A DNA stretch of 64,000 nucleotides, taken from NCBI GenBank assembly GCA_022843855.1, contig JALHMV010000002.1, positions 14,496-78,495 of the forward strand, in the 5' to 3' direction. The notes beneath the pieces were generated by a model, which saw only the letters and a program-made list of their open reading frames with translations, ran no database searches and had not been told where the DNA came from. Both the position numbers and the translations under genes were made by a program. Source of the stretch: Patescibacteria group bacterium (GTDB taxonomy: Bacteria; Patescibacteriota; UBA1384; 2-12-FULL-50-11). This document shows, piece by piece, positions 1 to 26,880 of this stretch; position 1 is the stretch's first letter; each line of letters starts with the position of its first letter.

Positions 1-690
1 CTGGCCACCAACGTCATCCAGCACTCGCATCTCCATGCTGTACGCCTCGACCTCTTCGAGGAAGTGATCCAGCTCACTATCCGGAGGCGGTGGACCGAAC
101 GCGGTAAACCGCGCCCAATGGAGCCCTTCGTGCAATGCCAGTACGCCGAGCCAGAGCAGGCTGAACTGGTCAGGATCACCCAAACCGATGGCGTTAACCT
201 CCGGTATATACGACGCGACGGATCGATGCGTCCCGTACACCTTACGCCAAGGTTCCGGGTCTTCTTTGAGGACGGGGACGAGCAGAACCCACGGTTCATT
301 CTCAAGACGATCGCCCCGAACGGTCGTTGGCGACGCAGCCAACTGCCCCTCGTAGATAAGCGGCGCACTGAGGATATAACCTCGGTGGAGCAACTCCCCA
401 ACTCGCCGAGCTTCGACGTCGTCTGTTCGCTTCAACACCGCATCGACCGAGGCCAGCACCTTCTTCATGACCTGCCGGCGCTTGGCCTGATGCGGATCGG
501 GCGGCGCCTTCGGCAGCGTTGATTGCGCCGTGTTGGACGAAGGAAGAGGACTGGGCTCTTTTTCTTGAGACAAGTTGCCTTTCGATCGGGAAGCCGAGTC
601 GGCGTTGGGCGGTTGGCTACCACAACCAACACCGCTCAGGCTGAGGACGAACGCGACGATGGCCGCGACACAAACCGGGATACTCTTCAT
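1..690 (-). CDS. Secreted HExxH (zinc metallopeptidase-like) protein, N-terminal 230 codons; the gene continues past the window start
   Basis: Stop-free minus-strand frame from an ATG (rc of 688-690) to the window edge. Translation starts MKSIPVCVAAIVAFVLSLSGVGCG, a signal-peptide-like N-terminus, and contains an HEGLH motif. The + strand ORF 64..522 is Arg-rich, typical of antisense. Absent from the ORF track because it is truncated. Confidence 0.5.
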   Translation of the reverse strand, partial: MKSIPVCVAAIVAFVLSLSGVGCGSQPPNADSASRSKGNLSQEKEPSPLPSSNTAQSTLPKAPPDPHQAKRRQVMKKVLASVDAVLKRTDDVEARRVGELLHRGYILSAPLIYEGQLAASPTTVRGDRLENEPWVLLVPVLKEDPEPWRKVYGTHRSVASYIPEVNAIGLGDPDQFSLLWLGVLALHEGLHWARFTAFGPPPPDSELDHFLEEVEAYSMEMRVLDDVGGQ

Positions 691-788
691 GTAAACCTGC
701 AAGGCTGCCTGATGCAGTCACGCGAATTCTAGCAGTCGGTCGGAGACAGGTCAAGTACGCAGACGGCGCTAAAATAGGTATTGAGCGC

Positions 789-818
789 TTGTTCAGGTAC
801 AACCCTTTAGGGTAAAAT
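789..818 (+). promoter_or_regulatory. Sigma70-like promoter candidate (TTGTTC-18-TAAAAT) upstream of the intron-containing tRNA
   Basis: Hexamers read directly from the sequence. The -10 ends about 28 nt before the tRNA 5' end. Confidence 0.25.
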
Positions 819-846
819 TCACTGTAGTTTCGCATCTTATTTACAT

Positions 847-1146
847 TCCGGAGTAGCTCAGCGGTAGAGCAGTGCGCTGTAGACTTAATTTGCAGCCCGC
901 GAGGGAAACGTCGCGGTGAACATTGGGAGGATTGCGGGAAGCCTAAAGTCTGAGAATGGCGATGGTAATCCGCAGCCGAGCCTTGTTCCATACGTCATAT
1001 ATGTCTTATGGTCGGGGAAGGTTCAGAGGCCATGCACCCAACAGCTAAGGCGAAAGCTAAGCTGAAGAGATGGTCCACGCCATTTGGAAACAAGTGGGTT
1101 GCGTGTAACGCATTGGTCGTCGGTTCGAATCCGACCTCCGGAGCCA
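847..1146 (+). tRNA. tRNA with an interrupted anticodon loop, most parsimoniously tRNA-Asn(GUU). Exon 1 is 847..880, the intron 881..1105, exon 2 1106..1146; CCA is encoded
   Basis: The 5' part is canonical: acceptor TCCGGAG, U8 A9, D-arm GCTC/AGCGGTA/GAGC, anticodon-stem 5' strand GTGCG, loop start CUGU. The 3' part is canonical: loop end UAA, CGCAU (closes the stem with one G-U pair), a 5-nt variable loop TGGTC, T-arm GTCGG TTCGAAT CCGAC, acceptor CTCCGGA, discriminator G, CCA. The acceptor strands pair perfectly. Confidence 0.6.
881..1105 (+). ncRNA. Putative group I self-splicing intron (225 nt) between anticodon-loop positions 35 and 36
   Basis: The 5' exon ends in U, the intron ends in G (omega G). 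The intron segment GCAG at 892-895 can pair with exon CUGU, giving a P1 helix with the U-G wobble at the splice site. GAAA-capped hairpins are present (CCGCGAGGGAAACGTCGCGG) and the sequence resembles the P7/P9 regions of known bacterial tRNA introns. No coding capacity; ORF 1008..1199 lies inside it. Confidence 0.5.
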
Positions 1147-1443
1147 AACAAAAAATCTTCTTAATGGCGGGTTCTTTGTTTTGTTTGGGAGACGATTGAG
1201 CCGACCAGCCGAAGGCTTTGTCGGTGCGGATTCAAGCGAGTAGTAGCGAGCGAGAATCTAGTCGCCTTAGCGACGATCCTCCGACCTCCAGAGCAAATAA
1301 ATCTAGTGAATTCAGTGCCGGGCACAGACCGACCCCTGCGTGACAAGCATCGGTGTTTCGTCTATGGCTCTTTTTGCCTTGGGGGGTCAAGGCCATGGTG
1401 GCACCGACCTTGGTCATTTTGCGAAAGTATCTATAGTTAAGAC

Positions 1444-2830: not shown

Positions 2831-3178
2831 ATGCGATTCATCGATCGGCAGCATCCGGTTTCGCTCGCCCAACTTCAAGACCTAGCCAACGAGCATTTTG
2901 CCGGAGAGTTAGTCAAGGCGGTTGTCGATATCGAGAAGGGCGTGATGGGTATCGGCGGATCCATGCACGCCGACGTGGTTGCGCTGCTCCTCGAGCAAAG
3001 ATCAGCGCAACCGAATCTCTGGGGAATCAACCTCCGTCCGAACGACGAGGAGTTTATCGAGTTTGACTCGATGATCAATATTCGCCCCACTCAGAACAAT
3101 CGATCACGCGGGGTAGAGGACGAGAAGATCCAACGACAAATCAGAGCAATTGTGGCGGAGTTGGTAAGCGATGCATGA
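2831..3178 (+). CDS. Hypothetical protein (resembles the DUF5674-type family, from memory); first gene of a coupled three-gene unit
   Basis: 115-aa ORF. Its stop overlaps the next start in ATGCATGA. The GIGGSMHAD and EFIEFDSMINIRP motifs are recalled from a conserved hypothetical family. Confidence 0.55.
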   Translation: MRFIDRQHPVSLAQLQDLANEHFAGELVKAVVDIEKGVMGIGGSMHADVVALLLEQRSAQPNLWGINLRPNDEEFIEFDSMINIRPTQNNRSRGVEDEKIQRQIRAIVAELVSDA

Positions 3179-4858: not shown

Positions 4859-7800
4859 ATGGATAAACAGCTACTCAATCGAAAGCGCCTTCGCGTTCTG
4901 GCCGGAGCGGCAGGCGGCGCGTTAGTCGTGATCCTTGTCGCGACCGGGCTATGGTTTCGGGGCGACCAAGAGAACAACAACCTCGCCCAGATCGGAGCCC
5001 CGATCGTCTTTCGAACCAACACTAGCGTTGAGCCAGGTGACACCATCAACGTTATCGGCTCGTTTAACGAGACGGCGCGCGTCTTTTTTCAGGTCATTAC
5101 GAACACCGGTCAGCGAGGGCCTGAACAGAGCTTATCGATCAATAATCAGAGCGGATCGCTTATCCAAGCCGTTCTCCCAGCAGACATTGACGGTTCGTTT
5201 CTTGGCGTGGTCAAGGTAAGGCAAACCGTCGGGTCGGTTGAGAACGTTGAGAGTAACGAACTACTGATCAACGCCCCTCAAGTCAACCACTTTATTACCG
5301 AAGACGTCGCCCCAGGCGAGACGCTTGATATCTTTGGTCGGGATCTCGTTCCCGATCGGGTCAGTACCAAGCGCTTCAGCGCCAGTCGTGTCTATTTTGA
5401 GCGAGACGGGCGACGATACGAAGCGCCGGTCATCAGCGGTGACTGGCTCCACCTTACGGTTCGCGTACCGAACAACCTTCCGCCAGCGAACGACTATCGT
5501 CTGATTATCTCAAACGGTTTGGGCGGCTCGGCAGGAGAAGTGGCAACCACCCGACCGTTATCGGCTGTCCGCGCTGGCACCGATGATAGTCTCGGGCTCG
5601 GAGTCAATTGGGCACGGGAGCTTGATTTTATCAACGATCAGAGTCGAACGATTAACGTCAAGACGGATGGACGCCTCATTGTCAGGGCGATCGGTGACGG
5701 CGTTGCCAACGATCTGCCTGCGTTGCAGGCGGCGATCGATCTTGCGAGCCAACTCGGTGGTGGCGTTGTGTTTGTTCCAGAAGGAACCTATCGTCTTGAT
5801 CTTAACGCCGGTAGTACGATCAGCCTCAAACAACGCGTCGTCGTGCGCGGCAGCGGTAAGGAGAAAACCCGGCTGGTCTACGGCAGCGTCGATCAACCCG
5901 ATAATAAGCGCCTCCTAACCTTCAACCAAGACGCTGATGGCGGACACGCGGGTCTGACAAGTCTGACAATCGAAAACATTAATCACCAAAACCCGAACCC
6001 CGCGCTCCGGGGGCTACCGTGGGCAACCGGCATCGATCTCGGAACCGCTGACTATATCTTTCTGCATCAGGTTCAATATCTGATGGGTAGTAACGACGGG
6101 CTTGGATCTGACTTTGTCAGCCGACTGTTGATTGCTGAGAGCGAATTTATTAATCGCCTCGCGCTCGATCGGAACGTCTTCAATTTTCGTGGCCATATTC
6201 CGCTACAGGCCGTCTCACCAGAACGCCAAAAGAGCGCTGGGCGCTACAACCTCATACGTAACAGCCGATTTGTCTATATCAACGACCGGTTTACCACGCT
6301 CGGTTGGCAAGATAGCGCGCTTATCGGCAACGAAATCACTCGCGATCTTCAGGCAAAGCCCGATCTCCAACGGCACACCGGCTGTTGCAGCGGCGGCTTG
6401 TCGTTCAACTTCAGTAACGATGCGTCGTTTATCGGCAACACCGTTCAGACGATTAACGGCTTCAACCGGCACGGCAATAACGACGGCGAAGGCATCGGCA
6501 GCGAACAGTGGACCGATTATCTCTGGCACCGAGGAACCGTCACGACAGCGACAGCGACGACGCTCGGTGACGCGTCGAGAAAATGGGACACCAGCAATCG
6601 CTGGCCGACGTACAACAACGGCAAAAACTTCGGCCAACCGAAACGAATCGGCACACCCGGATACAATCCGAGCACGGATTACAACAGCGATGGGATCGAC
6701 AGCGATATACCTGCCGATCTCCCGCCCGGTAGTCGGATCGTTCCGTGGGCGCACTACCAACAAGTGATCGTCGCAATTACCGATGGGCATGGCTTCGGCC
6801 AGTGGCGTCGCGTCGTAGGCCATAGTCCAACCGAGCTAACCGTCGACCGGCCGTGGGATGTGATACCTGACAAAACTAGCTCATACAAAGTACTAGTGGC
6901 GACCAATCTCGGTATCACTGTCGCCAATAACCAAGTCCGCGGCAGCGCTGTTGGGATTAATTTCTACGACGGAGTGATCGACTCGCTGATCGCCAATAAC
7001 ACGGTGATTGACGGCGGAGAGATTAGCATCCTGGCCAAAGACCTCCACGGCGGTTACGCGCACAAATCGTGTGACTTTATGGGACACGTTGACGGACCAT
7101 ATTCCCCGCTTCGACAAGCCGGTTTGCGGACCGAACTTGAAAACGTGCCGGCCGCCTACAACGATTGTACGATGCAATCGCTTTCCTGGGACAACGATTT
7201 GATCGGCAACCGAACAGAAAATACTACCGGCCTCTACGTTTCGAGAATCTTTCTCTTGGCGAACAATTTTATCAACGGGAGCGATCACGACGACCAGGAC
7301 TACGTGACCGACTGCAATAGCGACGGGCGCGTTGATTGGGCTGATGTACCGTGCAGCAACGATTATAAAAAGGACCTGCCGGCGCCGTCACACGGAAACG
7401 CGATACTCAATACGACGCTGCGACGTAACACAATCGTCGCTCACCCAACCGCGCTGATGGATAATAACTATCTGCGAAATATTCCGGGGAACGCCGCCAA
7501 GAACGCCGATATCGACTTTGCTTCGCGCGAGCGATTTTATATCGTCGCCGGCGGTTCGGCGCAAGGGATGGTACAAAACGTGCAAGCCGGCGCCAAGCAC
7601 ATCGTCGGGACAGTCCTCGACGACAACGTGATCACCAACTTCAGCGTCTCTGCTGACGACAGTGCCTACAGCTTTTCGCTTGGCACGGCTCAGACCTCCC
7701 TCAAAAGCGACCAACAGCCAGCTCAGTCGTACTGTTACCGAACTAATCTCGGTCGTTCGGACAATCGGGCGTCATCGATTCGATTGATCGTCACCGACCC

Positions 7801-8320
7801 GAGCCGAAAAAACAGTTATTACAAAGTGAGTCAGCCGTTTGTGACCGAATCCAACACGCTCGTTGCAGACGGATCTGGGATAATGATTGAACGCGACCCG
7901 GCGCACAATTTTCGTCTACGCTATCGGTACCAAATTTCCGACCGTCAGGATAACGGGGTCAACTGGTCGTATCAGCGCTGGGTACCTATCAATACTGGCC
8001 AAACGTACGACGTCTGGCAGAAAGTTCCAGGCTTTCTCTCTCGGAAGGTCACCAATGTTAACGCGGCCGAACTGATGGCGCCAGACAACTGTCAGAACAT
8101 CGCCCTGCGCCAGCCGCTCCTCCCCGGCGACTTTGATGGCGATGACAGTATCACCCGCGCCGACACCACGACCCTTATCAGTCAGTATCGTCGGCGCGGC
8201 AGCATCGAAGGTAACCACGTCGTATACAGGACGTACAACGGCCCGCCGACACTGAAAAACGTGGCCGACTTAATCCGTTTCCACAATAATCGCGCAACGG
8301 GCGACTCGTTCGTTCCGTGA
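4859..8320 (+). CDS. Very large secreted/surface protein (1154 aa): N-terminal anchor, right-handed parallel beta-helix (pectate-lyase-like) repeats, dockerin/EF-hand-like calcium-binding segments near the C-terminus
   Basis: ORF 4799..8320; the start is preferred at the ATG at 4859 (MDKQLLNRKRLRVLAGAAGGALVVILVATGLWF, a transmembrane segment). GGGVVFVPEGTYRLD and many NNxVxGS/IGNxI beta-helix repeats. DFDGDDSITRADTTTLISQY and DCNSDGRVDWADV are dockerin-like. Confidence 0.8.
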   Translation: MDKQLLNRKRLRVLAGAAGGALVVILVATGLWFRGDQENNNLAQIGAPIVFRTNTSVEPGDTINVIGSFNETARVFFQVITNTGQRGPEQSLSINNQSGSLIQAVLPADIDGSFLGVVKVRQTVGSVENVESNELLINAPQVNHFITEDVAPGETLDIFGRDLVPDRVSTKRFSASRVYFERDGRRYEAPVISGDWLHLTVRVPNNLPPANDYRLIISNGLGGSAGEVATTRPLSAVRAGTDDSLGLGVNWARELDFINDQSRTINVKTDGRLIVRAIGDGVANDLPALQAAIDLASQLGGGVVFVPEGTYRLDLNAGSTISLKQRVVVRGSGKEKTRLVYGSVDQPDNKRLLTFNQDADGGHAGLTSLTIENINHQNPNPALRGLPWATGIDLGTADYIFLHQVQYLMGSNDGLGSDFVSRLLIAESEFINRLALDRNVFNFRGHIPLQAVSPERQKSAGRYNLIRNSRFVYINDRFTTLGWQDSALIGNEITRDLQAKPDLQRHTGCCSGGLSFNFSNDASFIGNTVQTINGFNRHGNNDGEGIGSEQWTDYLWHRGTVTTATATTLGDASRKWDTSNRWPTYNNGKNFGQPKRIGTPGYNPSTDYNSDGIDSDIPADLPPGSRIVPWAHYQQVIVAITDGHGFGQWRRVVGHSPTELTVDRPWDVIPDKTSSYKVLVATNLGITVANNQVRGSAVGINFYDGVIDSLIANNTVIDGGEISILAKDLHGGYAHKSCDFMGHVDGPYSPLRQAGLRTELENVPAAYNDCTMQSLSWDNDLIGNRTENTTGLYVSRIFLLANNFINGSDHDDQDYVTDCNSDGRVDWADVPCSNDYKKDLPAPSHGNAILNTTLRRNTIVAHPTALMDNNYLRNIPGNAAKNADIDFASRERFYIVAGGSAQGMVQNVQAGAKHIVGTVLDDNVITNFSVSADDSAYSFSLGTAQTSLKSDQQPAQSYCYRTNLGRSDNRASSIRLIVTDPSRKNSYYKVSQPFVTESNTLVADGSGIMIERDPAHNFRLRYRYQISDRQDNGVNWSYQRWVPINTGQTYDVWQKVPGFLSRKVTNVNAAELMAPDNCQNIALRQPLLPGDFDGDDSITRADTTTLISQYRRRGSIEGNHVVYRTYNGPPTLKNVADLIRFHNNRATGDSFVP

Positions 8321-8326
8321 TCGACG

Positions 8327-9409
8327 ATGAAGCGGCTTCGAGGTATCGGTATTGGCCTGCTAATCACGGTCGGGCTTGTTGGTAGCCTCTCGACTGAGCT
8401 GCGCGCCCAACAATCAAACTCCGGCGTCAATCAGACAGACCGGCTGTTCTTTTCGCCCAGCAGCCTCTCGCCTCTGCTTAGTCAACCGAGCACGACAACG
8501 ATCCGCCTCGACAGCGCCCAGGGAGTGAGTATCGTTTCGCTCGTCCTCAACTACCCGGCCGAACGACTGCGAGTGACTGCGGTTGACTTCTCTGGCTCAG
8601 TCTTCGAAGAAGAAGTTGAACCGGTGACTGATACCAACGGCGAACTGCGCTTTAGCCGCGCTACTTTCCAGGAGAATGGCTATCTCGGCGGCGACGGTCT
8701 TGTCGGTCGGATCAGCTTTGAAGCGATAGCGACCGGTGAGAGCTCCGTAACGGTTGCGGTCGATCAGTCAGAAGTGCTCCACTACATTACTGGCGACAAC
8801 GTGCTTGCCTCGGCTGATAGGCTGACGATCGCCGCCCAGGCGAGCGGCCAAAGCGGATCCGGCAATAACCAATCCGGTGGTGGCGGGGGCGCTGGCTCTA
8901 ATCAAAGCTCGAACAAAAAAACCTCAAAGCGCTCATCGACTATCACGCCGATCGAAATACCGCTGCCGCCGAGCGGTCGTTTGAGCGACATTCGGGCAAC
9001 GGTCGACCAGACTGAGGCGACGATCGCCTGGCAGACCAGCGAAGCGTACGGTTACCGCTTGCTGTTTGGGCCGGATCAAACGGACCTGCAGCCGGAGCGA
9101 CGGCTCGAGCAAAAAGTCGCGCTAACCGAGCACTCAGCCCGTCTCAGTCAACTGACCCCGTGCACAACGTATCGTTTCACACTCAATCTCCTCACCGCCG
9201 TTGATTGGAGCGTGATTGACGAGCCGTATCAAGCCAGCTTCCGGACGCTCGGCTGCGACCAATCAGACGACGCCGTGACGTTGCCGGCGATCGATCGAAA
9301 CTCGGACGGACGTCGAACAATGGCTCTATTCTTGCTTGGACTCTTTATCCTGACCGCCACAACGACCTATCTGATGATCCGCCGCCGGCATCGGGGCGTA
9401 GCGCGCTAG
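8327..9409 (+). CDS. Membrane-anchored surface protein: signal peptide, cohesin-like beta-sandwich region, Ser/Gly/Asn-rich linker, FN3-like domain, C-terminal transmembrane anchor with a basic stop-transfer sequence
   Basis: MKRLRGIGIGLLITVGLVGSLS signal. VSLVLNYPAERLRVTAVDFSG...GLVGRISFEAIATGESSVTV resembles cohesin. TEATIAWQTSEAYGYRLLFGP...TPCTTYRF resembles FN3. C-terminus LFLLGLFILTATTTYLMIRRRHRG. Confidence 0.7.
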   Translation: MKRLRGIGIGLLITVGLVGSLSTELRAQQSNSGVNQTDRLFFSPSSLSPLLSQPSTTTIRLDSAQGVSIVSLVLNYPAERLRVTAVDFSGSVFEEEVEPVTDTNGELRFSRATFQENGYLGGDGLVGRISFEAIATGESSVTVAVDQSEVLHYITGDNVLASADRLTIAAQASGQSGSGNNQSGGGGGAGSNQSSNKKTSKRSSTITPIEIPLPPSGRLSDIRATVDQTEATIAWQTSEAYGYRLLFGPDQTDLQPERRLEQKVALTEHSARLSQLTPCTTYRFTLNLLTAVDWSVIDEPYQASFRTLGCDQSDDAVTLPAIDRNSDGRRTMALFLLGLFILTATTTYLMIRRRHRGVAR

Positions 9410-9654
9410 CGAGTCATCGGCTCCAGGCGCTGTTTGATCCGGCTTCCCAGCGTGGGGTGACTGACGCGCTGGACAGCGAGACGAAGACGGCGGCCATCAT
9501 CACTGCGGCCAAGGTCATGGTGGCCAGTCGAGTCGGAGTCTTCATTTTCTTGCCTCGAACCACTACACCGCTTGAGCTCAGCAGTTCAAGCCCACAACAC
9601 ACCCGCTCAGGCACTAGAAGCAAGAGAGAACGCTCTGATTTATTTTATTGGGAA

Positions 9655-9677
9655 AGCCCCCGCCAATCTGGCGGGGG
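9655..9677. terminator. Perfect 10-bp inverted repeat (GCCCCCGCCA atc TGGCGGGGGC) in a 540-bp intergenic region; possible terminator or protein-binding site
   Basis: Read directly. Flanked by A/T-rich sequence on the 5' side. Confidence 0.25.
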
Positions 9678-9949
9678 CATGGGGATGGACTCGGTCCGAT
9701 CAGGACCGGGTCGTGATCGGCTCTTGCTGCCTCGTTGGCAGCCTCAAGATTACACGCGCGGTCCGCGGACCCGCCCGACATCGGGCAAAGTTGTCTGACA
9801 TGATTGTCCTTGATCTTACCGGCACGGTCGCTGGCTAGATCAAGTGAAGAATACCATTTATCTTTGGATTAGTCAACAATTACGAGCACAGTTTTCGCTG
9901 AGTTATTGTGCGACTAGACAACCACCACGGCGCTCGGTAGCCTGAAAGT

Positions 9950-11281
9950 ATGAGCTCGACGCGCCGGATCTTTCTCTTCATCGCCCTGCCGCTGGTAGCG
10001 GTGTTTCTATTGATCGGCTACTTCTGGATAACGGACGTTGACAATAGCGGTCAACGAAAGACCGGCGACGGTCGCACGCAATACACGATCGACTGCCAAC
10101 CGCCCGACGAGCATCAGTGGTACCGCACCGATAATACTTTCCTCATCGATCATAAGAATCCAGACACCCTCTATGTCAGTGTCGAGTGGAAGGGCTTCTT
10201 CAAGTCAGTTGACGGCGGCGAGACCTGGACAAAAGTAGTGAACGGCATCTTCAGCGACCATATTGATAAAGTGACGAAAGAGAACTGCTACGGCGAGTAC
10301 CCAGCGGCGGTTATGGATCCAGAAAATCCCAACAGAATACTGCTAGCTACTTCCGGCTCTCCGGGTACTTTGAAAGACATTAACTCACAAGGCGGTGGCA
10401 TCTACGAAACTACCGACGGCGGCGAGAGTTGGACGCAGAAGATTCGCAACGACATGAACGTCTACTCGACCCGACTCGGGCTCGCGTTTAAACCTGGCGA
10501 CACTCAGACGTACTACTACGGCACCAGCGCTGCGCCGGCATCATATAACGAGGCCGATCAAACTAAGATATTCGTAACGAAAGGGATCATCTATCAGACA
10601 ACCGACAACGGGCAGACATGGACTGAACTTGAAACTGGTTTCATAAAGAACGCCCGACTAATGAGTATCATGGTCCACCCATCTAAGCCGGATACAATCA
10701 CGGCCGCAACAGCGGTCATCAACCGAAATATCGAGGGTCCGAACGATATCGCCGCCCAACAGATGGGTATCATCCAAACCACAGATGGCGGCAAAACGTG
10801 GAAGCGTGTCGACAACCTGCCGGTCGGCTACGAAGGCTCACAAGAAACAAAAGCGGCTCCGTCTAACGGTGACAATATGTTTCATATCCCCATGATCCAA
10901 GGCGACGACAATCTGCCGAAAGCTTTCTACTCACTTGACGGTGGGAAGACGTGGCTGGAGTCAGCTAAACATATGGACTCTGTTTCATACGACCCCCACG
11001 ATCTGAGCGGTAAGCGTCTACTCGGCTACTCTTGGCAGTGTATGGGTGAATGTCAAAAGACGCTCTGGCAAAGTCTCGACGCCGGTAAGTCCTGGCAGTC
11101 GTTCGGAACACTACCCAGCGAGATTAAGAACATCATGGATCAGAAAACTCGTGTACAGAACATCGTCTGGCATCCAACCAACAAGAGTACTTTCTTCATG
11201 ACTGGCGCCGGTGGTTTAGTCTGGAAGACAACTGACAACGGTTCGAGCTGGAACAAACTGCTCGACTACGGTCAATTATAG
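9950..11281 (+). CDS. BNR/Asp-box repeat beta-propeller protein with an N-terminal membrane anchor (paralog of 1444..2763)
   Basis: Asp-boxes SVDGGETW, TTDGGESW, TTDNGQTW, TTDGGKTW, SLDGGKTW, SLDAGKSW, TTDNGSSW. Shares the C-x-P-x-D-x-x-QWYRTD motif with the paralog. Confidence 0.75.
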   Translation: MSSTRRIFLFIALPLVAVFLLIGYFWITDVDNSGQRKTGDGRTQYTIDCQPPDEHQWYRTDNTFLIDHKNPDTLYVSVEWKGFFKSVDGGETWTKVVNGIFSDHIDKVTKENCYGEYPAAVMDPENPNRILLATSGSPGTLKDINSQGGGIYETTDGGESWTQKIRNDMNVYSTRLGLAFKPGDTQTYYYGTSAAPASYNEADQTKIFVTKGIIYQTTDNGQTWTELETGFIKNARLMSIMVHPSKPDTITAATAVINRNIEGPNDIAAQQMGIIQTTDGGKTWKRVDNLPVGYEGSQETKAAPSNGDNMFHIPMIQGDDNLPKAFYSLDGGKTWLESAKHMDSVSYDPHDLSGKRLLGYSWQCMGECQKTLWQSLDAGKSWQSFGTLPSEIKNIMDQKTRVQNIVWHPTNKSTFFMTGAGGLVWKTTDNGSSWNKLLDYGQL

Positions 11282-23829: not shown

Positions 23830-26800
23830 CTACTGCTTCACTAAACCGCTCGAGAGCAACTGGAAAAGCGAAACCTTGATCGACTTTTGCGGACTGATCT
23901 TGAGTGTCAGTGTGCGATCGGTTGTCTGACCGGCGCCATCAACTTCCCGACGATAGTTTTGGATTTCATAGCCGTGACCCAAAAGCGCGTCCTCCGACAG
24001 CTCGTTATCTCTGGCAAGGCCGCGCAAGAGAGTTTGCTGATCTTCGCTTAGTTGGTCGGCGGCCTGAAACGAGATGGTCCGACCAACGTCAAACGCATCC
24101 GGACCGCCGTACTCATTAATCAGATTCTCGAGCGGGCGATCGTCATCCCGGCGCTCGTCCTTAGCGCCAGGGTCAGGTTCGGGAGCCGGTGGAGCGGGCG
24201 GTTCCGGCGAGACAGCCGCCAACCGATCGTTCGCCTCCCGCAAGAATGCCACAACCTGACCAACTGTGAGTGGGTTTCTCTTGGTACCAATGATTGTGCC
24301 GTCGTAATCTTTGTATTTGACCGAGTAACCGCGATCTGACTCGGTAAATTTGAGTGAAGTCGTTACCCCGTCGGGAAAATGTAAATCGATATACTCGGCC
24401 GGCCGGCCGTTCGGATCTTTGTCTCTATCGATAACCACCAGATCGTTGAGGGAATCAGCTCCATCAGCGCCCGCCCATCGCTGGCGCAGCTGCTCAAAAT
24501 ACCGATAGAGCGTTTCGGCTGAGGCGGCGTTAATGCGCTGGCTGAGGATCGAATCGTCCACATCTTGGCCGCTCACAGCCAATTCGATCTGCTGTTGAAT
24601 GTCTGCCTTTTCCTTTTTGTTAGTTGGCTCGGGAGTCGGTGGCCTTTCCTCCTGGTCGGAAGCGCCACTACGCTGACCGACTTCCAGATGGCCGTGCGTC
24701 TTGAGGAAATTGGTGACCGTGTCCCGCTTAACCACGTACGGGCGATCTTTCTCTGAGCCGCTCGCCCGATAGGCGTAGACGATTTGATCGGACTCCGGAT
24801 CGGCCTCCAAGACAAAATCATAGATCCGGCTGCCGTCATCGGCGAGGACGAGGCGATCGCCCGAAGCGGTTCGGCGCGAATAGCCGGGCAGCTGCTGTCG
24901 ATTGAGCGCTTGGGCCAGGGTGGTCGGATCGCGATTCCACCAGTCGGGTTCGCGACCGCCGGGAGTCGACGGCAGGACCATCCCCAATTCTCGAGCGAGC
25001 TTCTCAAGATCGGCGCGGGTATCCCCTGGCTGCTGCTCTTTGGCAGCGGAGCCGACGTCTCCCTCTTTATGGAGTCGCAACGTAACCGCGTGCGCTTCGA
25101 GCGCGTCGATCAGCGGCTTATTGTCGGCCCGCAATTGGTCAGCGGAGATTCGGCGATCAGAATTTATTGTCGTTGCCGCTCCCTCGCTCAGGGCAGTGGC
25201 GGCGGCCATAGTTGCAGTTGTCAACGCGAGATTCTGCCACAATTGTTGTTGGATGAGGGTCGGGAGCGCGTCTGTAGCAGTAGCGATCTCCTTGACATGC
25301 AGAATCGGCCGGTCACCCGAGACAACATCCTCCAAACGGACTCCCGACATTTCCTTTATGTAATTTTGAAAATCGGGGCTAGCGAAGTAGGCTGCTTGAT
25401 CGGCCGGGCTCAGCCCGCTCAGCTCGGGATATTGATTAAGAACCGTCGTTTTGATTTGGTCGATCTGCTGCTCACTGAGATACTGGTGGTAGTGCTCGTG
25501 CCAGTTGTCGCCCAATCGAAGCGCGCTTTCGGTAAACTTAACATCGCCACCGCCGATGATGTCTTTTTGCTCGATGGCGTAGCGCCAAAGTCCGTCGTTG
25601 GTTTGGTAGACCTCGTGACCCAAGCTTGGGTCGCTTTGAAGAAAAAGATTGCCCGCATCGTCATGGTCAACGCGAATACCGTCTTCGCCGGCTCTTCTCA
25701 CGGCCTCGCCCTGAAAAATGCCTTCACTGAAAAACGAGCTAAGAGCCGTGGAGAGCGACGCACCGCCAACAGCCCCGAGGAAGCTGTATATAGCCTTTTT
25801 TTTCTGGTACTTCCGTTCGAGCTGCTGATATTTTACTCGGCGCTCAGACTCGCCCTCTAACCCTTGCTCCTTAGCGACCGCGATCATTAGTAGTTTATTC
25901 ATCGCCGCCGCCCGCTTATCTTGGTCGTCACCGGCCGACTCTAATAGCTGCTTGGCTTCACGCTGCATGAGCAGAACGCGGTAGAGCGCGTCCTCGATCA
26001 CTTTCTGACCGATTTCTTCGTGACCGAGCGCCCGATGACGGAAGTAATCAGCGCCCAACCGACCGAGCGCGCCGCCGACCACGCCGCCAGCCAAACCAAC
26101 CAACGAGATCGGGCCGCCAAGAACACCGATGACACCGACGGTTGCCGCCGAAATCCCGGCTGACACTGCCGTGCGGCGACTAAATATTTCCTTAAGCGCC
26201 GAGTAACGCCGGTCTCGCTCAAGCGTGACGTGCAGCGCCTCGCCGGCTTTTGTATCGGCTGAGATGGCCGAATCAACACGCAACCGGCTCATCGCGGCCT
26301 GAAATGTAGCGAACCCGAGTTGATTAACCACGAGCTCAGCTAATGCAGCGCGCTCGGCGTTGTGAGTAACATCAAGCGCCAGGATCGTCAGTTGTTCGGG
26401 ATCGACTTTCTCGCCGTGACGCAGTCGATCGAGAACCTGGTCGGCAATCAATCGGTAGTCGTTGCTGCGCTCGCGCTCTGCTTCTTGTAAAAGGTTTTGG
26501 AGACGGTCTTTGTCAGCATCCGGCTCGGCCAGCTCGGCCTCAATCTCCTTGATTCTCTGTTCGGTCTCGTCCAGTCGTTGCTGCGCTGCCTCGGCATTCT
26601 CCCGCATAGTATGCCGCTCCTTTTCTTGAACGCCCTTGCGACGCTCGGAGCCGGTCAGTCTCTGCCAAGCGCCGGTTAAAAAACCGAGGCGTTGTTTGGC
26701 CGCAGGCGACTCCGACAGATGATGAGCCGGAGTCTCTTTCTCAGACGAAGTACCTCCCGTAACCCCAGATGTGGGAGCTGACTTTAGCTCCGAATCAACA

Positions 26801-26880
26801 ACACCCTGATCAACGGGTTGTCGTTCAGCAGAAGATTGTGGATCGCTCTCTACTGACCGTGGGGGGCCCTCGCCAGACAT
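23830..26880 (-). CDS. Large (1016 aa) membrane protein of unknown function with two glycine-zipper transmembrane segments
   Basis: Long ORF with a coiled-coil N-terminal third. Transmembrane segments SAGISAATVGVIGVLGGPISLVGLAGGVVGGALG and AIYSFLGAVGGASLSTALSSFF. No recognisable catalytic motifs. Start lies 6 nt after the upstream small gene. Confidence 0.8.
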   Translation of the reverse strand: MSGEGPPRSVESDPQSSAERQPVDQGVVDSELKSAPTSGVTGGTSSEKETPAHHLSESPAAKQRLGFLTGAWQRLTGSERRKGVQEKERHTMRENAEAAQQRLDETEQRIKEIEAELAEPDADKDRLQNLLQEAERERSNDYRLIADQVLDRLRHGEKVDPEQLTILALDVTHNAERAALAELVVNQLGFATFQAAMSRLRVDSAISADTKAGEALHVTLERDRRYSALKEIFSRRTAVSAGISAATVGVIGVLGGPISLVGLAGGVVGGALGRLGADYFRHRALGHEEIGQKVIEDALYRVLLMQREAKQLLESAGDDQDKRAAAMNKLLMIAVAKEQGLEGESERRVKYQQLERKYQKKKAIYSFLGAVGGASLSTALSSFFSEGIFQGEAVRRAGEDGIRVDHDDAGNLFLQSDPSLGHEVYQTNDGLWRYAIEQKDIIGGGDVKFTESALRLGDNWHEHYHQYLSEQQIDQIKTTVLNQYPELSGLSPADQAAYFASPDFQNYIKEMSGVRLEDVVSGDRPILHVKEIATATDALPTLIQQQLWQNLALTTATMAAATALSEGAATTINSDRRISADQLRADNKPLIDALEAHAVTLRLHKEGDVGSAAKEQQPGDTRADLEKLARELGMVLPSTPGGREPDWWNRDPTTLAQALNRQQLPGYSRRTASGDRLVLADDGSRIYDFVLEADPESDQIVYAYRASGSEKDRPYVVKRDTVTNFLKTHGHLEVGQRSGASDQEERPPTPEPTNKKEKADIQQQIELAVSGQDVDDSILSQRINAASAETLYRYFEQLRQRWAGADGADSLNDLVVIDRDKDPNGRPAEYIDLHFPDGVTTSLKFTESDRGYSVKYKDYDGTIIGTKRNPLTVGQVVAFLREANDRLAAVSPEPPAPPAPEPDPGAKDERRDDDRPLENLINEYGGPDAFDVGRTISFQAADQLSEDQQTLLRGLARDNELSEDALLGHGYEIQNYRREVDGAGQTTDRTLTLKISPQKSIKVSLFQLLSSGLVKQ

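Follow-up and report, generated by a model that had tools for sequence, protein, structure and literature searches.

Two adjacent genes, here called P1 and P2, lie in a 64-kb stretch of contig JALHMV010000002.1 from a Patescibacteria group bacterium (assembly GCA_022843855.1). We refer to this stretch as the window, and the numbers of cohesins and dockerin-like modules given below are counted within these 64 kb. P1 encodes a large beta-helix protein that ends in a dockerin-derived module and P2 encodes a membrane-anchored protein with a cohesin domain. We propose that the two make up a minimal cohesin-dockerin pair of the non-cellulosomal kind in a Saccharibacteria-like bacterium (Patescibacteria/candidate phyla radiation, CPR), in which the module of P1 would bind the cohesin of P2, and we put the probability of this reading at about 0.6. 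Cohesin-dockerin contacts are best known from cellulosomes; elsewhere they are sporadic and mostly without known function. The two genes are on the same strand and in the same frame with 6 nt between them. An earlier note on this DNA had given these gene positions and the gap correctly from the letters, and its P1 length of 1154 aa is corrected here to 1153 aa.

A conserved gene pair with a cohesin and a dockerin-derived module

The adjacency of P1 and P2 is conserved. A pattern search of GTDB genomes with a two-sequence alignment of P2 and its ortholog P0014 led to a metagenome-assembled genome of Candidatus Saccharibacteria from groundwater, the one source in which an ortholog could be located. 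At this locus (L002) a P1 ortholog of 1188 aa (6417-9983) is followed by P0014 (404 aa, 9986-11200), in the same order and 2 nt apart. P1 and its ortholog are 45% identical end to end, and P2 and P0014 are 30% identical with an identical architecture. The flanking genes at L002, among them P-type ATPase and Band7, have no relation to those in the window. The pair alone is conserved, in line with the earlier proposal that the neighbouring genes belong together. Profile hidden Markov model (HMM) scans found a single cohesin and a single dockerin-like module in the window and likewise in the 21-kb ortholog locus. Between the two loci the cohesin (32% identity) and the module (33%) have diverged further than the beta-helix (50%). 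This difference in sequence would be compatible with a species-specific interface whose two sides co-diverge, and also with weaker constraint on both domains. The pair on L005, a contig of a groundwater metagenome, is identical in sequence to that of L002, and a search of genome contigs for related loci with P1 alone returned no relative.

P2 is composed of a signal peptide, a cohesin domain, a Gly/Ser/Asn stalk, an FN3 domain, a transmembrane helix and a basic tail (RRRHRGVAR), and its AlphaFold2 (AF2) model has a mean predicted local distance difference test score (pLDDT) of 81. The signal peptide, cohesin-like stretch, linker, FN3-like domain and transmembrane anchor that the earlier note had recognized from the sequence were all confirmed. 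P2 holds a genuine but very divergent cohesin domain, an assignment we make because family homology, a profile match to solved cohesins and the predicted structure agree. When 1.84 billion representatives were searched exhaustively with phmmer, the P2 cohesin had 154 homologues at E<1e-3. Pfam Cohesin matches 69 of the 127 homologues that were scanned (best E 9.8e-22), Dockerin_1 is carried by 12 of these 127, and SLH, FN3 or CarboxypepD_reg domains are found in others. When searched against the PDB, the profile of the P2-cohesin family finds solved cohesins at E 2e-7 to 1e-5 and no other fold ranks above them. With the family alignment as input, AF2 folds residues 40-170 into an all-beta sandwich with a pLDDT of ~97, which superposes on solved cohesins and is in keeping with their nine-stranded flattened jelly-roll. 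Foldseek ranks C. perfringens GH84C first among PDB matches of P2, through its cohesin-FN3 double module (2w1n, E 5e-12), and some 40 cohesin chains superpose with TM-scores of 0.66-0.79 and a root-mean-square deviation (rmsd) of 2.3-4 Å. The domain is closer to type I cohesins (TM-score 0.77-0.79) than to those of type II/III (0.54-0.58).

Other searches with P2 were less informative. The Pfam scan of full-length P2 gave no Cohesin match and only sub-threshold FN3-type matches, with fn3 at E 3.8e-4 and Pur_ac_phosph_N at E 1.4e-4, both below cut-off. Pfam Cohesin has no match in P0014 either, and a word-indexed homology search with P2 returned only P2 itself. Both cysteines of the FN3-like domain (C279 and C310) are kept in P0014, and the stalk of P2 is shorter than its counterpart there. 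A DRNSDG motif just before the transmembrane helix (9290-9310, residues 322-328) was considered as a calcium site and rejected, being absent from P0014; it is probably a chance match.

On the side of P1, the C-terminus is best read, from its sequence, as a derivative of a dockerin that has a single calcium site and follows a co-conserved putative beta-sandwich. Two homologues of the P2 cohesin, P0115 and P0032, end in the same atypical module, on the same polypeptide as this cohesin subfamily, and every instance of the module known to date accompanies that subfamily. In the module of P1 one dockerin repeat is intact (DFDGDDSITRAD and its helix), with a loop that reads D1091-x-D-x-D-x-x-I-x-x-A-D1102. 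We built one profile from three sequences (P1, P0115 and P0032) and another from four, with the P1 ortholog added. Across the four proteins, at 27-36% identity, the first repeat follows G-D-F-[DN]-x-D-[DN]-x-I-x-x-A-D plus a helix, the Ala-Asp at loop positions 11-12 is invariant and both helices of the module are kept. A type I dockerin has two tandem F-hand repeats of ~22 residues, each with a 12-residue calcium loop and a helix after it; P1 does not have both, the second calcium loop having been lost. Against the PDB, the three-sequence profile matches almost only dockerins (2y3n_B, E 1.6e-4), and the four-sequence profile finds the same chain at E 2.2e-5 with dockerins making up 16 of its 18 matches at E<=1. 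Using hhalign, the module aligned with canonical two-repeat dockerins of the same cohesin family at 93% probability. Among the four members of the family Pfam Dockerin_1 misses P1 and matches the other three, with a best E of 1.7e-4, and in the full-length P1 ortholog it reaches E 0.0012 and 19.4 bits (cut-off 22.9).

The homology is not limited to the module. Residues 1044-1149 of P1 are 33% identical to residues 237-335 of P0115 (pairwise E 3e-13) in an alignment that reaches into the preceding beta-sandwich, and the last strands of the beta-rich domain of P1 (YDVWQKVPGFLS) have homologous counterparts in the domain ahead of the module in P0115 and P0032. AF2 places the module helices at residues 1100-1112, 1120-1126 and 1132-1144 with a pLDDT of 50-70, from an alignment that is three sequences deep there. 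A word-indexed homology search with the three-sequence module alignment returned nothing. The calcium-loop motif as such occurs little beyond chance in P1: D-x-[DN]-x-[DN] is observed three times with 2.3 expected from shuffles, and the full 12-residue EF-type loop twice with 0.24 expected (P ~0.025, 5000 shuffles). The case for a dockerin therefore rests on homology instead of on the bare motif. The dockerin-like C-terminus proposed earlier is in this way supported by profiles, but it is an atypical one with its calcium loop in the first repeat alone. The profile searches suggested at the time leave both window domains below the Pfam cut-offs, whereas the family profiles match solved dockerins and cohesins.

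The remainder of P1 and the surrounding window

P1 runs from an N-terminal hydrophobic helix through two Ig-like domains, a beta-helix with insertions and a beta-rich domain to the C-terminal module of ~60 aa (Table 1). Its residues 10-34 are probably a signal-anchor or a long signal peptide. The tandem Ig-like domains are shared with four distant homologues (P0003-P0006, 26-29% identity), which we found in a word-indexed search of 5.8 billion proteins. The same kind of search missed the 45%-identical ortholog of P1, so that an empty result from it is not equal to absence. The pectate-lyase-like beta-helix that had been read from the repeats of P1 was borne out by sequence profile: Pfam PF12708 (Pect-lyase_RHGA_epim) matches residues 277-340 with 31.8 bits, above its cut-off of 27, and the ortholog with 41 bits. 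The beta-helix opens with the N-terminal cap motif of the superfamily (AIGDGVANDLPALQAAIDLA..GGGVVFVPEGTYRL). A phmmer search of the PDB with P1 returned AlgE6 (E 2e-7) and AlgE4 (E 1e-6) as well as 3zpp ("cell wall surface anchor family protein") and the Sf6 tailspike. In Foldseek the top matches of the P1 model are AlgE-type epimerase/lyase beta-helices, at E 2e-6 but with TM-scores of 0.3-0.4, and GH87 is among the relatives. Short regular strands are predicted by AF2 across residues 280-730 with patchy confidence.

P1 matched no CAZy-type catalytic family in Pfam or NCBIfam. The rhamnogalacturonidase models of NCBIfam, whose cut-offs are 500 and 650, reached 24.9 and 14.8 bits on P1, and the search for carbohydrate-active enzyme families that the earlier note had recommended pointed to no characterised one. 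Pfam detected no carbohydrate-binding module (CBM) in the gene pair. Among the distant homologues, P0004 (L008:6578-10258) is a beta-helix fused to an AXE1/DLH-type esterase; the polysaccharide utilization locus in which it lies also encodes a SusC/SusD pair, AXE1 and GDSL esterases and a hybrid two-component regulator. P0006 sits among GH2, GH43 and other beta-helix genes. The family of beta-helix proteins related to P1 may be an uncharacterised family of glycan-active enzymes.

The alignment with P0003-P0006 brings out three insertions in P1, at residues ~583-633, 722-757 and 793-830. Residues 955-1153 form a C-terminal extension. Two peptides of P1 with calcium-type loops had been proposed as dockerin segments near the C-terminus. 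One of them, DFDGDDSITRADTTTLISQY, is indeed there at residues 1091-1110, but the other, DCNSDGRVDWADV, spans residues 818-830, which puts it 335 residues before the end. A third D-x-N-x-D-G loop, which had gone unmentioned, begins at residue 607. The 818 loop (DCNSDGRVDWAD, DCNSDG) gives Pfam Dockerin_1 an E of 0.05 and 14.2 bits (cut-off 22.9) and has no duplicated repeat. Together with C819 and C832 it is kept in the ortholog, and insertions 1 and 3 are lacking in P0003-P0005. We rejected both the 607 and the 818 loop as dockerin repeats, since they are isolated loops inside insertions of the beta-helix; for DCNSDGRVDWADV this means an unrepeated segment in a disulfide-bracketed insertion that the distant homologues do not have. 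To judge from the sequence, the 818 loop is probably a disulfide-bracketed calcium loop, and AF2, with a pLDDT of ~21-30 at this place, neither confirms nor refutes its placement. All eight cysteines of P1 are kept in the ortholog, including the vicinal CC 509/510 and C959/C1078, and this conservation would fit an extracellular, disulfide-stapled protein.

The pair is embedded in ordinary chromosome. The window encodes DnaG, FtsK, RNase J, PNPase, Pol I, a PEP-utilising enzyme and an aminoacyl-tRNA synthetase, and an ABC-2 transporter is also among the neighbours of P1 and P2. A scan for promoters and terminators around the pair gave results no better than those of shuffled sequence. The two BNR/sortilin-type propeller paralogues (36% mutual identity) show a sub-threshold likeness to the NCBIfam model F510_1955 "glycosylhydrolase". 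They do stand one on either side of the pair as had been noted, but small genes intervene and the propellers are absent from the orthologous Saccharibacteria locus. For this lack of conservation we rejected them as components of the system, and they are probably not part of the P1-P2 cassette.

Other features of the window were recorded on the way. A DUF5674 protein is encoded at 2831-3178 (+, E 2.8e-31); this family is common in CPR/Patescibacteria genomes and, together with the one ortholog of the pair, points to a probable Saccharibacteria or Patescibacteria origin of the window. At 847-1146 (+) we found a tRNA gene whose anticodon loop is split by a group I intron at 877-1097 (Rfam RF00028, 66.5 bits). 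ARAGORN misses this gene in the window and calls a tRNA after in-silico removal of the intron; the CCA end is encoded, and the precise position of the splice junction decides between Thr(UGU) and Asn(GUU). An open reading frame (ORF) of 1016 aa at 23830-26880 (-) has no Pfam match at E<=1e-5 and adjoins a local spike in GC content (63% at 22-24 kb compared with ~55% elsewhere). A further large orphan, perhaps a surface protein, may be encoded here.

Table 1. Positions in the window and supporting evidence for P1, P2, their domains and the flanking propeller genes.
Feature	Position	Residues	Strand	Description or evidence
P1	4859..8320	1153 aa	+	Putative surface beta-helix protein with C-terminal dockerin-like module; ORF and translation
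P1 N-terminal hydrophobic helix	4886..4960	10-34	+	Kyte-Doolittle >1.6 at 10-17; AF2 helix 8-34; present in ortholog
P1 tandem Ig-like domains	4997..5578	~47-240	+	AF2 all-beta, pLDDT 60-90; Foldseek tandem Ig matches
P1 predicted right-handed beta-helix region, pectate-lyase/AlgE/tailspike superfamily	5642..7678	~262-940	+	Pfam, PDB phmmer, Foldseek
P1 DYNSDGIDSDIP loop	6677..6712	607-618	+	Beta-helix insertion 1 (583-633); position 12 without acidic residue
P1 DCNSDGRVDWADVPC loop	7310..7354	818-832	+	Beta-helix insertion 3 (~793-830); bracketed by C819/C832
P1 beta-rich domain before module, X-module-like position	7733..8092		+	Bracketed by C959 and C1078; Cys kept in ortholog
P1 dockerin-like module	8114..8299	1086-1147	+	F-hand loop D1091-D1102 and helix, short helix, loop-less second helix TLKNVADLIRF
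P2	8327..9409	360 aa	+	Membrane-anchored cohesin-FN3 protein; ORF
P2 signal peptide	8327..8407	1-27 (...ELRA/QQ)	+	Sequence, hydrophobic window, AF2 helix 8-18; putative cleavage site
P2 cohesin, type-I-like	8438..8842	38-172	+	Pfam sub-threshold, homologues, profile, AF2, Foldseek
P2 Gly/Ser/Asn-rich disordered stalk	8843..8941	173-205	+	Sequence; AF2 pLDDT <50 at residues 182-201
P2 FN3-like domain	8969..9256	~215-310	+	AF2 beta-sandwich (219-306), pLDDT 70-92
P2 C-terminal transmembrane helix, basic cytoplasmic tail	9311..9385	~331-353	+	Kyte-Doolittle peak 331-334; AF2 helix 328-359
BNR/sortilin-type propeller paralogues	1444-2763 and 9950-11281		+	N-terminally membrane-anchored; one each side of P1-P2

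The proposed contact and its alternatives

In the arrangement we propose, P2 would be exported via its cleavable signal peptide and kept in the membrane by its C-terminal helix, so as to present one type-I-like cohesin at the tip of the FN3 domain and the flexible Gly/Ser/Asn stalk. P1 would be exported through its N-terminal hydrophobic segment and would carry to the surface a beta-helix of ~680 residues with disulfide-stapled calcium-loop insertions, most likely glycan-cleaving or glycan-binding. Its module would bind one Ca2+ via the sole intact F-hand (D1091, D1093, D1095 and D1102) and in this form plug into the cohesin of P2. With no calcium loop left in its second repeat, the module is expected to bind in a single orientation, unlike symmetric dockerins with their dual mode. 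The contact would fix the C-terminal end of P1 to the surface stalk, and if the N-terminal helix stays uncleaved P1 would be tethered at both ends. The cohesin contact may serve more than anchoring, given that P1 also brings an N-terminal hydrophobic anchor. Of the scaffold-anchoring arrangement put forward in the earlier note, the anchored cohesin on a stalk is real, but "scaffold" overstates P2, which has one cohesin in a window that holds a single cohesin and a single module; the pair would be 1:1.

Several observations weigh against this proposal. The two modules are hard to recognise in the window itself: residues 38-171 of P2 scanned alone reach Pfam Cohesin PF00963 at E 0.0066 with 17.1 bits, below the cut-off of 24.1, and Pfam Dockerin_1 PF00404 gives no match to the C-terminal module of P1 even at E<=10. 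The hhalign alignment of the module covers the first repeat alone, and while the second helix is conserved as T-L-x-x-[LV]-x-x-L-I-[RK], acidic loop ligands precede it in none of the four family members. The full-length AF2 model of P1 has a mean pLDDT of 48 and falls below 35 in the insertions and at residues 863-1087. Conservation of the pair amounts to one independent orthologous pair, L005 having the sequence of L002, and the P0115 gene stands alone without a beta-helix neighbour. Finally, with an N-terminal anchor in P1 a cohesin tether is not obviously needed.

P1 and P2 could be neighbours and not partners, the cohesin of P2 taking dockerins from genes elsewhere in the genome or some other ligand and the module of P1 a different cohesin, with their adjacency reflecting the co-expression of surface proteins. 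The 64 kb are the visible portion of the genome, and canonical dockerins in 12 of the 127 cohesin relatives imply larger networks in related organisms. Partners also need not adjoin each other in the way P1 and P2 do, as P0115 and P0032 join cohesin and module in one chain, and another dockerin-domain protein is known from a cultured Saccharibacterium (Wang et al. 2023). We nevertheless consider it unlikely that the two are neighbours only, since the pair, and the pair alone, has kept its order and spacing between two genomes with differing flanks, the window and the ortholog locus have a single cohesin and a single module each, and the atypical module has to date turned up only alongside this cohesin subfamily. 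At the locus of one of the fused proteins, P0032 (L007:150-1148) is followed by a second, truncated cohesin gene (L007:1193-1429, cohesin HMM E 2.8e-7), which hints at small cohesin-dockerin networks in related organisms.

The module might instead be a degenerate EF-hand or dockerin relic that uses calcium to stabilise or cap the C-terminal beta-sandwich of P1, the cohesin of P2 being a generic Ig-like spacer or an adhesin for glycans or proteins. A second repeat without calcium loop, the failure of Pfam on the window module and the clearly structural nature of the other isolated calcium-type loops of P1 (607 and 818) would agree with this, and many non-cellulosomal cohesin-like and dockerin-like modules reportedly have no demonstrated partner. 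Such a relic is hard to reconcile with a module that has kept both helices in four proteins, including the invariant Ala-Asp and the LI(R/K) of the last helix, that recurrently co-occurs with one cohesin subfamily and whose profile matches are dockerins and not generic EF-hands, and we hold it to be quite improbable. An alternative that concerns P1 only, and that is compatible with a tether, sees in the beta-helix a non-enzymatic adhesin for host attachment, similar to pneumococcal PfbA and the passengers of autotransporters. Saccharibacteria need adhesins for epibiotic growth (PMC10633639), the PDB matches of P1 include 3zpp and no CAZy-type catalytic family was matched in Pfam or NCBIfam. 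The nearest relatives in sequence and fold are on the other hand enzymes (AlgE epimerase/lyases, GH87, tailspikes), and because two distant homologues belong to glycan-degradation loci and one of these two is joined to an esterase, a glycan-directed enzymatic role appears more likely by sequence comparison. An adhesin is thus possible, though we rather doubt it.

Relation to known systems and implications

Among solved structures, P2 most closely resembles C. perfringens GH84C/NagJ (2w1n), where a single cohesin also lies directly beside FN3. As in the glycoside hydrolase pairs of C. perfringens, the contact, here putative, would join glycan-active surface or secreted proteins pairwise without a cellulosome. 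The C. perfringens cohesin forms part of a multimodular enzyme that is soluble, and its partner dockerins are of the canonical two-loop kind. P2 is in contrast a dedicated, enzyme-free membrane-anchored stalk, with ~13% identity to GH84C and a one-loop dockerin as its putative partner.

With the cellulosomal type I pairs (6kgf, CohA2-Doc0917 of C. acetobutylicum; 5nrm, ScaB Coh6-DocCel5 of A. cellulolyticus; 2vn5 of C. cellulolyticum; 2y3n of B. cellulosolvens) P2 shares the cohesin fold, at TM-scores of 0.7-0.79 and an rmsd of 2.3-3.0 Å, and the first repeat of P1 aligns with type I dockerins through G-D-x-[DN]-x-D-x-x-I-x-x-A-D and an amphipathic helix. As in cellulosomes, the dockerin ends a protein of carbohydrate-active type and the cohesin protein is cell-anchored. 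P1 and P2 are however not a cellulosome: there is no multi-cohesin scaffoldin, CBM or set of dockerin enzymes in the window, and the anchor of P2 is a transmembrane helix and not SLH or sortase. They also differ from type I systems in the degenerate second F-hand of P1, which makes a dual binding mode unlikely, and in having both modules below Pfam cut-offs. The beta-sandwich directly before the module recalls the X-module-dockerin dyads (CipA X-DocII, 2b59, of C. thermocellum; CttA X-Doc of R. flavefaciens). Sandwich and module are co-conserved in P1, its ortholog, P0115 and P0032, and 2b59_B is among the weak matches of the module profile. Unlike in type II/III X-Doc systems the cohesin of P2 is nearer to type I, and the beta-sandwich of P1 is likened to an X module by its position alone. 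The superfamily to which the beta-helix of P1 is assigned includes AlgE mannuronan C5-epimerases/lyases, phage tailspike depolymerases, GH28-related proteins and GH87. P1 differs from characterised PF12708 enzymes by its large lineage-specific insertions with calcium-type loops and disulfides.

Metagenomic relatives of P2 among cohesin proteins of Patescibacteria and uncultivated lineages have a comparable build, with a signal peptide and a cohesin followed by a transmembrane anchor or a dockerin. Dockerin domains have been noted in giant proteins of Omnitrophota, and non-cellulosomal cohesin and dockerin modules are described from every domain of life (Peer et al. 2009, as cited in PMC10066038). 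A dockerin-domain envelope protein, SEML1_0315, is essential for the epibiotic growth of the cultured Saccharibacterium Southlakia epibionticum (PMC10633639). Unlike P1 it is a 927-aa Ig-repeat protein with no beta-helix and no adjacent cohesin gene, and as an Ig-repeat protein it was rejected as a P1 ortholog. Our literature search found no description of a cassette of beta-helix and cohesin anchor nor of a one-loop dockerin variant.

We may speculate further that the pair is a lineage-specific "one enzyme, one socket" display of Saccharibacteria. An unrecognised dockerin class, made of a beta-sandwich and a single calcium loop and binding in a single mode, would lock the far end of an N-terminally anchored beta-helix depolymerase on a cohesin stalk. 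The resulting arch at the contact between epibiont and host could open or grip polysaccharide of the host cell wall or of extracellular polymeric substances, and would thus serve attachment and feeding and not the degradation of plant fibre. We offer this picture as a conjecture with small chances of being right in all its parts.

Saccharibacteria are ultra-small and live attached to host bacteria, and surface proteins decide their attachment to the host. Both the cohesin and the dockerin-like module fall short of Pfam thresholds, and annotation pipelines that rely on profiles will probably miss such genes; these divergent cohesin and dockerin genes nonetheless form a conserved two-gene cassette in Saccharibacteria. 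Should P1 and P2 not bind each other, they would simply be another pair of divergent surface proteins. If they do, the module would represent a one-calcium-loop dockerin variant that could serve as part of an orthogonal affinity pair, and the cassette would give a handle on how an epibiont with a reduced genome organises a large glycan-active protein on its surface.

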